DNA of 64,000 nucleotides from Escherichia coli 042. GTDB lineage: Bacteria > Pseudomonadota > Gammaproteobacteria > Enterobacterales > Enterobacteriaceae. A program made the position numbers. This document shows positions 56,901 through 64,000 of the stretch, in pieces. Position 1 is the first letter of the stretch. Each line of letters opens with the position of its first letter. The stretch lies in assembly GCF_000027125.1 (NCBI RefSeq), contig NC_017626.1. One strand, 5' to 3'.

Positions 56901-59900
56901 GACAGGATACGTATTCCCTTATCCAGACCGGACACCACTGAAATCGTCGCTAACCCCGTGATGACCACGATCAGAATTACCTGCACCGTTTCATTGATGG
57001 GCACCCCGAAAAGATGGTTCAAACCGGCATTCACCTGCAAAACACCGTAACCCAGTGATGTCGCAACGCCAAAGACCGTGCCTATAACAGCGAAAATATC
57101 AACCGCATGTCCTACAGGTCCGTATATGCGATCGCCAATAATGGGATAGAGTGCGGAGCGCAGAGTTAAAGGCAGACCGTGACGGTAACTGAAGAACGCC
57201 AGAATCAGCGCCACAATGGCATAAATTGCCCATGCGTGCAGTCCCCAGTGGAAAAAGGTCAGACGCATTGCTTCCTTAGCTGCCGCAACGGTTTCTGGAG
57301 TGCCAACGGGTGGCGAAAGATAATGCATTACAGGTTCGGCAACGCCAAAGAACATCAGGCCGATCCCCATCCCTGCCGAAAAAAGCATCGCAAACCAGGA
57401 GTGGTAGCTGAAATCAGGCTGCGCATGGTCCGGGCCCAGCTTGATATCACCGTAGCGTGAGAGTCCAAGGAACGTGACACTCAGTAAAATCAGGGCTACA
57501 GCAAGGATGTAGAACCAGCTGGCATTCGTGAAGATTTGTTGCTGAAGTAGTTTAAAATTTTTGTCGGCGACATCCGGGAATACGGCGGCAAAGGCGACAA
57601 GAAGGAAAATTAGCAAAGCAGATGTAAAGAATACCGCTTTGTTAATCTGACTTGTAGACTTCTTTGGGATTGTATCATTTTCACTCATAATCATTTATTC
57701 CATTAATTAAATTCGCACTGGATAGAAGGTACTACCTCTCACAAAGTAGCAAAGTTCAACTGGCTATGCGGCGTTAATCGGAATGCATGGTGGAATGTTG
57801 AGGTGTACTGGCAATAGCGGACACTACCATTTGTTCTTTTTTTAAGCAGCCATCTGATGATATTTTTCCCTGAAGGCTGCCGGGGAGATATTCCCCAGAC
57901 GAGAGTGACGACGCTGACGATTGTAGAAAATCTCAATGTATTCCCGTATTACTGAGATGGCTTCATCCCGGTTATTAAAACGATAGTGGCTCAGGCTCTC
58001 ATTTTTCAGCGTTCCCCAGAAGCTTTCCATCGGAGCGTTGTCGTAACAGTTACCTTTACGCGACATTGATGTTTTCAGACCAAACTGCTCCTGTATGACC
58101 CGGTAATCGTATGCGCAGTACTGTGAACCTCGATCAGAGTGGTGGATTAGCCCGGCAGGTGGGCGCTGGCTCCTGAGCGCCATAAACAGGGCTTTACCTG
58201 TCAGCTCTTTTGTCATGCGCTCTCCCATGGCGTAGCCGACAATTTCGCACGTATAAACATCTTTGATGCCAGCGAGGTACAACCATCCCTCCTGTGTGGC
58301 AACATACGTCAGGTCCGCCACCCAGACCTGATTTGGTGCTGTAGGAGCGAACGTCTGGTTCAGCAGATTTGGCGCAACTGGCAGATTGTGGTTCGAGTTC
58401 GTAGTCGCTCTGAACTTGCGTTTCTGCTTACAGCGTAGCCTTAGCTCCTTACGAAGACGTGCCAGTCGGTCACGACCAACGATGATGCCATTCTCTGCCA
58501 GCTCCGTCTGGAGCCGCCGGGTTCCATATGTTTCGCGAGTGCGGATATGTGCCACCTTAATCTCCAGTTTTAGCCGCTCATCACTTTGTTTTCTGTCTGA
58601 GGGTTCATGCTGTACCCAGTTGTAATAACCGCTCCTGGATACACCAAATACCTGACACATCGCTTCAATGGGAAATTGTTGTCGCCATTGTTCGATTAAC
58701 GCGTATTTTTCAGCGACTCCTGTGCAATTTAATATATCTCGCTCAAGGCGAGCTTCATTTAACGCCTTACGCAGTTGCAGAATTTCAGATTCCAGTTCAG
58801 CCACCGTGCGGGAACCAGGAGTACCGAGCCCTTTTCTGGCGGCGGTAACCCATTGTCCTAAAGTGCCTTCAGGAAGAGATAATCGGGAAGCACCTTCACT
58901 GATCGAAAGTTGATTTTCAAGAACCGTTCTGACAGCTTCGGCTTTGAACTCTTTAGAGTAACGTTGGGTTTTTCTGCTCATTATTAGCTCCTTCTGATGC
59001 CATTCTATTTCAGGAAGGAGTGTCCGTTAAACTCAGGCTACCTCATTGGTTCCCACTACTTATTTGGTGGACACCACTTTGTCTAATTCGTCAGATTCTG
59101 ACCAGACGGTTCAGGCTGTACGCTTACAAACAACTAGTGGAAATACTTGTACTTTATAATTTCAAGGGTACGGGTCCGCTTCGTTTGATTTGCGTGTTTT
59201 TAACAATTTTAAAACCCAGACATACTGTTCCGGATGTGGCCCCACCAAAATTTCCACTGTTTTGTTCATTTGTCGGGCAATCATTTTATTGTCCGCGCTG
59301 GCAATGCAAGCATCCATTGGTGGCCGAATTTCAATAGTCAGGAGATGTTTTTTTTCATCATAAACCGGGAAAAGTGGTATAATCATAGCCTGACTGATGT
59401 TCATCAGACGTCCAATGATTGGTAATGTCGCTTTATAGGTCGCAAAAAAATCAGCAAATTCACTGTATTCAGGACCATGATCCTGATCTGGGAGGTAATA
59501 TCCCCAGTATCCCTGGCGTACTGACTGAATAAATGGTTTTATCCCATCCTCCCGGGCATGTAAGCGCCCCCCGAATTTACGCCGTACTGAATTCCAGACA
59601 TAATCAATCACTGAATTTCGTTGCTGATGAAACATGGCGGCCATTTTTTTTCCCTGAGCTGCCAGCAACATTGCAGGAATATCCACGCTCCAGCCATGGG
59701 GAACCAGAAAAATCACATTTCTATTATTGTGTCGAATTTCCTCAAGAATTTCGAGGCCTTTCCAGAACACTCGTTTCTGGAACTTTTCCGGACCACGAAT
59801 TGCCAGTTCTGCCATCATCACTATGGATTGCAATGCTGTGGCAAACATTTTGTCGACAATTATTTCCCGTTCTGTATCACTCTTTTCTGGGAAACAAAGC

Positions 59901-62900: not shown

Positions 62901-64000
62901 TGATGACAGTGTTTTCCAGTTGTTTTCAGCCAACCATTTCATTTGTTTCCGGAATGTCTCGGGAGAAAGTGTAACCAGTCCTGGGCAATGGCTGACATGA
63001 TGATACATTAATACCGGAACATGATTTGCTTTAAACAAAATGCCTCCTCCGTTTAAAATTTAAAGTTTCTGGCACCCAGTAAGTAGAGATAAAAGGAAAG
63101 CCTAATAAAGTTGGTGAACTTTATATACTACTAAATCAAACATCAACAATTTATAAACAATAATATATTATCATATCTTTTAAAAACGGCTCACTAAGAA
63201 CCTTGAGGTGGCACACTAAATTTAGCTACCTGAACAGAGGTGATATGCTCACCTCAGAACAACACAGGTGCCATAATGAAAAAAGAAATTTCAGCGCAGA
63301 GTTTAAACGCGAATCCGCTCAACTGGTCGTTGACCAGAAATACACCGTGGCAGATGCAGCCAGCGCTATGGATGTCGGCCTTTCCACAATGACGCGATGG
63401 GTGAAACAATTACGTGATGAGCGGCAGGGAAAAACACCAAAAGCCTCCCCCATTACCCCGGAACAAATTGAAATCCGTGAGCTCAGGAAAAAGCTACAAC
63501 GTATTGAAATGGAAAATGAAATATTAAAAAGGCTACCGCGCTCTTGATGTCAGACTCCCTGAACAGTTTTCGATAATCGGGAAACTCAGGGCGCGTTATC
63601 CTGTGGCCACTCTCTGCCATGTGTTCGGGGTCCATCGCAGCAGCTACAAATACTGGAAAAACCGTCCTGAAAAACCAGACTGCAGACGGGCTGTATTACG
63701 CAGCCAGGTACTTGAACTGCATGGCATCAGCCACGGCTCTGCCGGAGCAAGAAGCATCGCCACAATGGCAACCCAGAGAGGCTACCAGATGGGGCGCTGG
63801 CTTGCTGGCAGACTCATGAAAGAGCTGGGGCTGGTCAGTTGCCAGCAGCCGACTCACCGGTATAAGCGTGGCGGTCATGAGCACGTTGCTATCCCGAATC
63901 ATCTTGAGCGACAGTTCGCCGTAACGGAACCAAATCAGGTGTGGTGCGGTGATGTGACCTATATCTGGACGGGTAAGCGCTGGGCGTACCTCGCCGTTGT

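Follow-up and report, generated by a model that had tools for sequence, protein, structure and literature searches.

An intact chromosomal copy of the shf-capU-virK-msbB2 operon, with a conserved PhoP box, in the leuX-fec island of Escherichia coli

The window analyzed in this study, a 64,000-nucleotide stretch of the Escherichia coli 042 chromosome (contig NC_017626.1), carries the four genes shf, capU (rfbU), virK and msbB2 in an island that starts at the tRNA gene leuX. The locus is, with high confidence, an intact and functional chromosomal copy of the shf-capU(rfbU)-virK-msbB2 operon, serving as a PhoP/PhoQ-activated unit of envelope remodelling. The identity of the genes, their intactness, the conservation of a PhoP box upstream of shf, the purifying selection acting on the genes, and the genomic context of the locus were established in this analysis.

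Gene content, intactness and identity

An earlier note on this DNA had proposed four minus-strand genes in the order shf-capU-virK-msbB2. The list of open reading frames (ORFs) reproduced their coordinates to the base (Table 1), and Pfam and NCBIfam searches bore out all four of the product families that had been named. The genes are co-directional, with intergenic gaps of 2, 4, and 64 nucleotides (nt), a spacing that is operon-like, and the ORF list showed zero internal stops in any of them. The GC content of the cluster (38-46%) was lower than that of much of the neighboring sequence (50-55%), consistent with a foreign origin. In pairwise comparison with the Shigella copy, the ratio of nonsynonymous to synonymous substitution rates (dN/dS) was 0.155 for shf, 0.220 for capU, 0.301 for virK, and 0.208 for msbB2, indicating purifying selection on all four genes.

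The encoded proteins were 93.7-96.2% identical to those of S. flexneri pSF5 (Shf 95.6%, CapU 95.6%, VirK 93.7%, MsbB2 96.2%), which upheld the gene names given in the earlier note, and CapU was 95.8% identical to rfbU of pCP301. Identity was higher still, at 98.7-99.7%, to the proteins of plasmid pETEC_74 (at least 99.4%, three genes) and of the O104:H4 chromosome (at least 98.7%). At the nucleotide level, the 4-kb cluster was 99.3-99.7% identical to plasmids of enterotoxigenic (ETEC) and enteroaggregative E. coli (EAEC) and 96.2-97.5% identical to Shigella virulence plasmids (pINV). The module common to chromosomal and plasmid copies extends a little further, to 4.18 kb, and comprises msbB2, virK, capU, shf, the promoter, and the first ~102 bp of an insertion sequence (IS) of the IS911 family; by BLAST, this module was 95.1% identical to S. 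flexneri pSF5 and 99.1% identical to pETEC_74.

Table 1. Positions of the features discussed in the text, numbered along the window.
Feature	Coordinates	Strand	Remarks
leuX, tRNA-Leu(CAA)	25438..25522	plus	ARAGORN; integration site, island start
IS600 copy (IS3 family)	57799..59045	minus	97.9% to Shigella pSF5 IS600 over 1,264 columns, end to end
IS66-family terminal stump, 82 bp	59046..59127		98.8% to the end of the IS66-family element on pETEC_74
4.18-kb module common to chromosomal and plasmid copies	59128..63305	minus	BLAST end points the same in pSF5 and pETEC_74
msbB2 (lpxM paralogue)	59162-60106	minus	314 amino acids (aa); predicted late lipid A myristoyltransferase
virK (DUF535)	60171-61121	minus	316 aa, intact
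capU (also rfbU, Sfgtr4, WabB-like)	61126-62214	minus	362 aa, full length; predicted GT4 glycosyltransferase
shf (also SfpgdA)	62217-63038	minus	273 aa from TTG start; predicted CE4 polysaccharide de-N-acetylase
Shine-Dalgarno sequence GGAGGAGG	63043..63050	minus	strong; 4 nt upstream of the shf TTG start
Candidate -10, TAGTAT	63125..63130	minus	12 nt downstream of the PhoP box; placed by Shigella alignment
PhoP box TGTTTA-taaat-TGTTGA (TGTTTAtaaatTGTTGA)	63143..63159	minus	both hexamers the same as in the S. flexneri shf box tTGTTTAtgaatTGTTgAt
IS911-family (ISEc52-like) element	63204..64000, past window end	plus	terminal repeat TGAGGTGGCACAC starts at 63204

Promoter and predicted PhoP control

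The spacer between shf and the adjacent IS element is 165 bp long and holds the PhoP box. The corresponding box of S. flexneri shf was bound by PhoP in an electrophoretic mobility shift assay, with a DNase I footprint fitting the motif, and the S. flexneri shf region gave lacZ expression that depended on PhoPQ, Mg2+, pH, and polymyxin (PMC5775216). The -10 element of Shigella shf, TAAATT, was mapped by primer extension (PMC12562796), and in the alignment the candidate -10 of the present copy occupied the same position with the same 12-nt spacing from the box. Co-transcription that depends on PhoP/PhoQ and Mg2+ is known from Shigella, and by analogy this copy would be under PhoP control. Low Mg2+, acid pH, or cationic peptides would signal to PhoQ and activate PhoP, which, bound to the box (63159-63143) in place of a -35 element, would drive a single transcript across the four genes. 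A scan of positions 57000-64000 against Rfam returned no RNA family.

The PGAP annotation starts the shf homologue 21 nt further upstream, at an ATT codon, giving a protein of 280 aa (63038-63059). The TTG codon at 63038 is the more plausible start, as it follows the Shine-Dalgarno sequence GGAGGAGG by 4 nt.

Predicted functions of the four products

The enzymatic roles of the four products, like the regulation of their genes, were assigned from published work on near-identical genes, and the domain evidence obtained here is in keeping with those roles. MsbB2 matched the equivalog model TIGR02208, "lauroyl-Kdo2-lipid IVA myristoyltransferase", at 442.1 bits (cut-off 336.05) and NF006507 at 521 bits (cut-off 337). 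It was 70% identical to K-12 LpxM over its full length, and its HX4D motif (H137-G-W-S-V-D142) aligned with HGWAVD of that enzyme. MsbB2 has been described as a myristoyltransferase (PMC2808357, supplementary text). It would add the secondary myristate to penta-acylated Kdo2-lipid A and so hold hexa-acylation under inducing conditions; by precedent, its role would be to secure hexa-acylation during PhoPQ induction rather than to make a new lipid A species. The 316-aa product of virK, as the earlier note had it, belongs to the VirK/DUF535 family, with a full-length match to PF04393 (E=1.9e-89, residues 26-298 on model positions 2-278 of 281). VirK has been reported to be cytoplasmic and required for outer-membrane impermeability (PMC12562796), and the present protein would likewise support outer-membrane barrier function from the cytoplasm.

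In CapU, Pfam recognized the two GT-B halves that make up a GT4 enzyme (Glyco_transf_4, residues 12-161; Glycos_transf_1, residues 186-333), and the CapU translation includes the E-x7-E motif ESFGMVLAE. The related RfbU/WabB adds alpha-1,7-linked glucosamine (GlcN) to the R3 core of lipopolysaccharide (LPS), and WabB is described as transferring N-acetylglucosamine (GlcNAc) or GlcN onto heptose III of R3 cores (PMC2808357, supplementary text for RfbU/WabB; bioRxiv 10.1101/536201). CapU, as a GT4 enzyme related to the WabB of pO157, would therefore be expected to decorate the inner core of LPS with a hexosamine or hexose, at heptose III of an R3-type core.

Shf matched the polysaccharide deacetylase family PF01522 (E=6.4e-28), and its CE4 motifs, TFDD (D68-D69) and H149-T-H-T-H153, aligned with those of BpsB and PgaB. 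Its nearest curated or solved relatives were the de-N-acetylases of poly-N-acetylglucosamine (PNAG), namely PgaB, BpsB, and IcaB, with BpsB and PgaB the best among solved structures. No signal or transmembrane segment was predicted at the N-terminus of Shf, where the maximum 19-residue hydropathy was 0.83 among windows starting in the first 25 residues. By this hydropathy prediction, Shf would not reach the extracytoplasmic location that action on peptidoglycan or PNAG needs. A de-N-acetylase with no export signal most likely deacetylates the sugar added by CapU, or another envelope glycan.

Taken with the 2-nt gap between shf and capU and the protein interaction reported for their Shigella counterparts, the lack of an export signal leads us to favor, as an inference, two steps coupled at the cytoplasmic face, with sugar transfer by CapU followed by deacetylation by Shf; this conflicts with the published assignment of Shf to peptidoglycan. 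In its specific form, CapU would place GlcNAc on heptose III of the inner core, its cytoplasmic partner Shf would convert this sugar to cationic GlcN, and the operon would act as a single module for LPS charge and acylation. We put this specific form forward tentatively, at somewhat below even chances. Such a two-step reaction is comparable to that of WabH and WabN in Klebsiella.

Shf and CapU could alternatively act on an exopolysaccharide or on peptidoglycan, with msbB2 and virK as mere neighbors: Shf would either deacetylate a PNAG-like polymer and promote biofilm formation, or de-N-acetylate peptidoglycan and confer lysozyme resistance. The family relationship to the PNAG deacetylases speaks for this alternative, as do the biofilm defect of an EAEC shf mutant (PMC2808357) and the work on Shigella Shf (SfPgdA), which was reported to have peptidoglycan deacetylase activity and to confer lysozyme resistance, the Shigella mutant being sensitive to lysozyme and neutrophils (PMC7355660). 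However, a protein predicted to have neither signal peptide nor membrane anchor is ill placed for work on peptidoglycan or a secreted polymer, the module includes no polysaccharide synthase or exporter, and the homologous WabB decorates heptose III of the LPS core. The physical interaction of Shf (SfPgdA) with its glycosyltransferase SfGtr4, reported for Shigella (PMC7355660), and the 2-nt gap also fit transfer followed by deacetylation at the cytoplasmic face. Action outside LPS is accordingly considered unlikely, at about one chance in a few, and the coupled reaction on the LPS core is the reading that we favor.

Chromosomal setting, distribution and prior description

The location in a chromosomal island, proposed in the earlier note, was confirmed: the window and the E. 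coli CV839-06 chromosome are collinear at 99.9%, and the island starts at leuX. Core genes (treB to ahr) extend up to leuX, as synteny with CV839-06 and K-12 indicates, and a P4-type integrase (25722-26975) adjoins it. Beyond the integrase, the island holds an Ssp phosphorothioation module, sugar-utilization genes, several IS elements, a TetR regulator, a DUF2254 protein, and a BetT-like transporter of the BCCT family (betaine/choline type), followed by IS600, the cluster, and the IS911-family element. In the collinear CV839-06 chromosome, yjhV and fecEDCBARI lie directly past the point where the window ends. K-12 has the same frame from leuX to fec, without the module. As a separate observation in this part of the island, IS100 (istA/istB) lies inside the TetR-family regulator gene at ~51400-54200 (CV839-06 L001, 13789-16405), a short way upstream of the two genes next to IS600, those for the DUF2254 protein and the BetT-like transporter; the regulator is intact in O104:H4.

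Distribution was surveyed in 5,426 complete E. coli genomes. The cluster was present in 565, with at least 80% coverage in 431 of these, and it occupied 526 chromosomal and 115 plasmid places. A chromosomal location is thus the ordinary one, and a commoner place for the cluster in E. coli than a plasmid. The entire arrangement of IS600, cluster, and IS element was found in 373 genomes, and hundreds of genomes have retained the intact arrangement with an identity of 99.7-100%. The chromosome of ETEC E24377A is among the carriers, as is O104:H4 2009EL-2071, where the context differs only in that a group II intron sits inside the IS. Over the 4-kb cluster, the bit score implied a single mismatch to CV839-06. 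Among side observations on other carriers, the IS911-family element beside shf is split by a group II intron (ltrA) in many strains (e.g., O104:H4 L004, 16146-19612), and other genomes have IS1 in or adjoining the cluster, or have only msbB2 and part of virK left.

A chromosomal shf-rfbU-virK-msbB2 locus beside fec is already known. Chaudhuri et al. (2010; PMC2808357) described the EAEC 042 chromosomal locus Ec042-4769 to 4772 as shf, rfbU, virK, and msbB2, beside fec (Ec042-4776 to 4782), and noted that a PhoP/Q- and Mg-regulated promoter is retained. The finding is therefore not new in kind, having been in print since 2010, and only the IS stump shared by the plasmid copies, the mosaic IS, and the cytoplasmic prediction for Shf are mildly new. 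A chromosomal msbB2 in BL21(DE3) proved to be a false lead, as the allele in the paper concerned is actually delta-msbB28.

Evidence weighed against a functional operon

Several observations weigh against the reading of the locus as a functional, PhoP-activated envelope unit. A 49-bp segment that directly follows the Shigella shf -10 is absent from this copy, from the O104:H4 chromosome, and from pETEC_74 (alignment columns 211-259; ~63126), so the transcript start, the leader length, and possibly the regulation may differ from Shigella. A generic sigma-70 scan flagged no promoter at the proposed shf site and thus gave no positive support, as is to be expected where a promoter depends on PhoP and lacks a -35 element. 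CapU was only 58.8% identical, over its full length, to the glycosyltransferase of pO157-type plasmids, the homologue of the characterized WabB. Published roles of Shf conflict, as biofilm formation is said to need Shf in EAEC and loss of Shf to speed it in Shigella, and Shf has been published as a peptidoglycan deacetylase despite the lack of an export signal found here. Partial clusters alone were present in 134 of the 565 carrier genomes, about a quarter, some of them interrupted by IS1. Finally, virK of CV839-06, the nearest sequenced strain, has a nonsense mutation and is annotated as a pseudogene (L001, 22472-23422), although it is intact in the window. The partial clusters and the stop in virK indicate that the locus is dispensable.

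Such dispensability raises the question of whether the cluster is a decaying, IS-bracketed passenger of the leuX/fec island, its functions covered by the housekeeping lpxM and ybjX. Besides the partial copies and the internal stop in virK of the nearly identical CV839-06, decay is visible in the frameshifted orfA and orfB of the IS911-like element and in the internal deletion of IS600, and K-12 does without the module at the same site. All four ORFs are nevertheless intact in the window, the dN/dS of 0.16-0.30 across the E. coli-Shigella divergence points to sustained purifying selection, the PhoP box and the strong Shine-Dalgarno sequence have been kept, and the same intact arrangement recurs in hundreds of genomes at 99.7-100% identity. 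The passenger explanation is thus very unlikely, and the locus is better read as a functional operon.

Flanking IS elements and the route of arrival

The elements that the earlier note had placed on either side of the cluster, at 57799-59045 and from 63204 onward, were confirmed as IS600 and as an IS911/ISEc52-like element. The transposase of IS600 matched NCBIfam transpos_IS3 at 400 bits, and the identity of the copy and its terminal TG...CA ends are those expected of a full-length element. A deletion of 17 bp between 58727 and 58728 has taken away the programmed -1 frameshift region and fused orfA and orfB in frame into a single ORF of 379 aa (57842-58981). In CV839-06, PGAP annotates the product of this fused ORF as intact, and O104:H4 has an annotated ORF of 379 aa at the same position. 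In the base-level alignment, no 3-bp target duplication flanks IS600, the bordering triplets being tgt and ttg. The IS66-family stump follows IS600 directly, and its terminal repeat GTAAGCGTACAGCC (minus-strand reading) abuts 59127.

The note had also suggested that the rest of the IS911-like copy be sought past 64000. The frames of the collinear genome (CV839-06 L001, 25505-26760) indicated that the chromosomal element is full length yet defective, with orfA frameshifted at its start (6 A vs. 7), orfB frameshifted, and the tip of the right terminal repeat degenerate. It was 98.3% identical to ISEc52 over 63215-63500; compared with K-12 IS911B, identity was about 90-93% up to ~63929 and near complete beyond. 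The element is therefore a mosaic, ISEc52-like and then K-12 IS911B-type, with a breakpoint near 63929.

Plasmid matches generally start at 59128 and stop at 63305, and only 5 plasmid records continue past 63305. pSF5 and pETEC_74 have the same IS truncation point and also have ~140 bp past the truncation in common. The stump shared among plasmids implies that the plasmid copies descend from a form with the IS911-family element already beside shf. More tentatively, every plasmid copy, that of Shigella pINV included, may come from an ancestor in which a complete ISEc52-like element adjoined shf, a state that the chromosome still has.

At the same site in K-12 (L006, 13126-15802), IS911B is interrupted by IS30D and a 327-bp IS600 fragment, which corresponds to window positions 58728-59045 at 99.4% identity. 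The right end of this fragment (window 59045) abuts IS911B at the equivalent of window 63655, and the IS600/IS911B junction would represent, in our evolutionary reading, the same site without the module. K-12 as a simple IS600-mediated deletion derivative was considered and set aside as unproven, the first 334 bp of IS911B being kept across the IS30 insertion. Insertion of IS600 into IS911B, one element nested in the other, is an explanation of K-12 that is no less good.

The earlier note had suggested that the module was captured by IS elements, and this stood in part: involvement of IS elements is plausible, and composite transposition is not, given the missing duplication and the mosaic IS. 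The two flanking IS are different elements, the IS911-like one is defective, and no duplications flank the module, a repeat search having returned only short repeats at chance level. The arrangement thus lacks the features of a composite transposon. The module was most likely placed in the leuX island through homologous recombination inside IS600 and IS911-family copies already resident there, because this route fits the lack of an IS600 duplication, the mosaic IS, and the K-12 junction; the direction and order of events are inferred.

Recent transfer in a single step from a virulence plasmid of the present day, as a composite transposon mobilized by two IS3-family elements, would account for a cluster bracketed by two such elements and for its identity of 99.1-99.5% to the ETEC and EAEC plasmid copies. 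IS600 and the IS911/ISEc52-like element differ, however, and cannot work together as a composite transposon; no target-site duplication flanks IS600; and the transposase genes of the IS911-like element are frameshifted and its right terminal repeat degenerate. The plasmids keep a 102-bp stump where the chromosome has ~725 bp of ISEc52-like sequence, so the donor was unlike today's plasmids, and hundreds of diverse genomes have the arrangement as a fixed one. This scenario is extremely unlikely, and recombination within resident IS copies is the preferred explanation.

The Ssp phosphorothioation module near leuX

The window also contains an SspB-SspC-SspD DNA-phosphorothioation module on the minus strand (35781-36671, 32456-35800, and 31624-32481; PADLOC E=7e-115, 0, and 1e-140). 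The whole region (27244-36671) lies beside the leuX integrase, and the known effectors SspE and SspFGH are not paired with sspBCD. In their place, two other genes adjoin sspBCD. The product of one (27244-29628) has 794 aa, with two GHKL-type ATPase (histidine-kinase-like) domains and a faint HEF_HK match, and that of the other (29625-31475) has 616 aa and matches Response_reg_2 weakly. This kinase-like/receiver-like pair also stands next to sspBCD in Pseudomonas (57% identity), and in Xanthomonas (44% identity) it forms one co-directional block that includes sspA. The paper that defined the HEF_HK and Response_reg_2 domains ties both to restriction-modification systems, and the phosphorothioation-related terms looked for did not occur in it (PMC8011034). 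The pair could serve Ssp modification as a restriction partner of a kind not described before, and the Ssp module with this pair may be more interesting than the shf cluster.

Significance

The locus touches both the acylation of lipid A and the decoration of the LPS core, and through these effects it bears on endotoxicity, on resistance to cationic peptides and lysozyme, and on the outer-membrane barrier. capU, shf, and virK are widely used as "EAEC/Shigella plasmid" virulence markers. In complete E. coli genomes, these markers are more often chromosomal than plasmid-borne, and about one in ten such genomes carries them; ETEC, O104:H4, and environmental isolates are among these carriers. Owing to this chromosomal predominance, detection of capU, shf, or virK by polymerase chain reaction (PCR) or in a genome is no sign of a pAA or pINV plasmid.

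Comparison with known systems

One of the closest known systems is the Shigella virulence plasmid operon SfpgdA-Sfgtr4-virK-msbB2 (pINV, pWR100, pCP301), in which gene order, gene lengths, and spacing are the same as in the present copy. The hexamers of the PhoP box and the distance from box to -10 are identical, and the left end point at 59128 and the IS911-family stump are held in common. In contrast to the chromosomal copy, the Shigella operon is plasmid-borne, has the 49 bp extra in its leader and the -10 TAAATT in place of TAGTAT, and keeps only ~102 bp of the IS911-family element.

The shf-capU-virK loci of EAEC and ETEC plasmids (pAA2 of 042, pETEC_74 of E24377A) have the same module end points as the present copy. 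Some of these plasmid copies are without msbB2, as is the case for pAA2 (per PMC2808357) and for matches that start at query position 1063, and msbB2 is not annotated on pETEC_74, whereas the chromosomal copy holds all four genes. The EAEC 042 chromosomal locus of Chaudhuri et al. (2010) comprises the same four genes, with a few mobile-element genes between the locus and fec. Compared through the published description together with the O104:H4 and E24377A records, it showed no substantive difference from the present copy. Other chromosomal carriers differ from the present copy only by a group II intron or IS1 in or near the flanking IS.

A distant relative is found on pO157, in what we take to be the "ecf" operon, a plasmid locus with WabB and a second LpxM. 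This is an analogous plasmid-borne set of envelope genes, the glycosyltransferase of which is the one 58.8% identical to CapU; pO157 gave no DNA match to the cluster in a search needing roughly at least 85% identity.

Two of the island genes also have housekeeping counterparts in E. coli. MsbB2 is a 70% identical paralogue of LpxM (MsbB1) with the HX4D motif conserved, and the island copies stand behind a PhoP-box promoter. VirK has the DUF535 fold in common with YbjX, and the functions of the two overlap, Shigella VirK and Salmonella YbjX being ~36% identical (PMC12562796).

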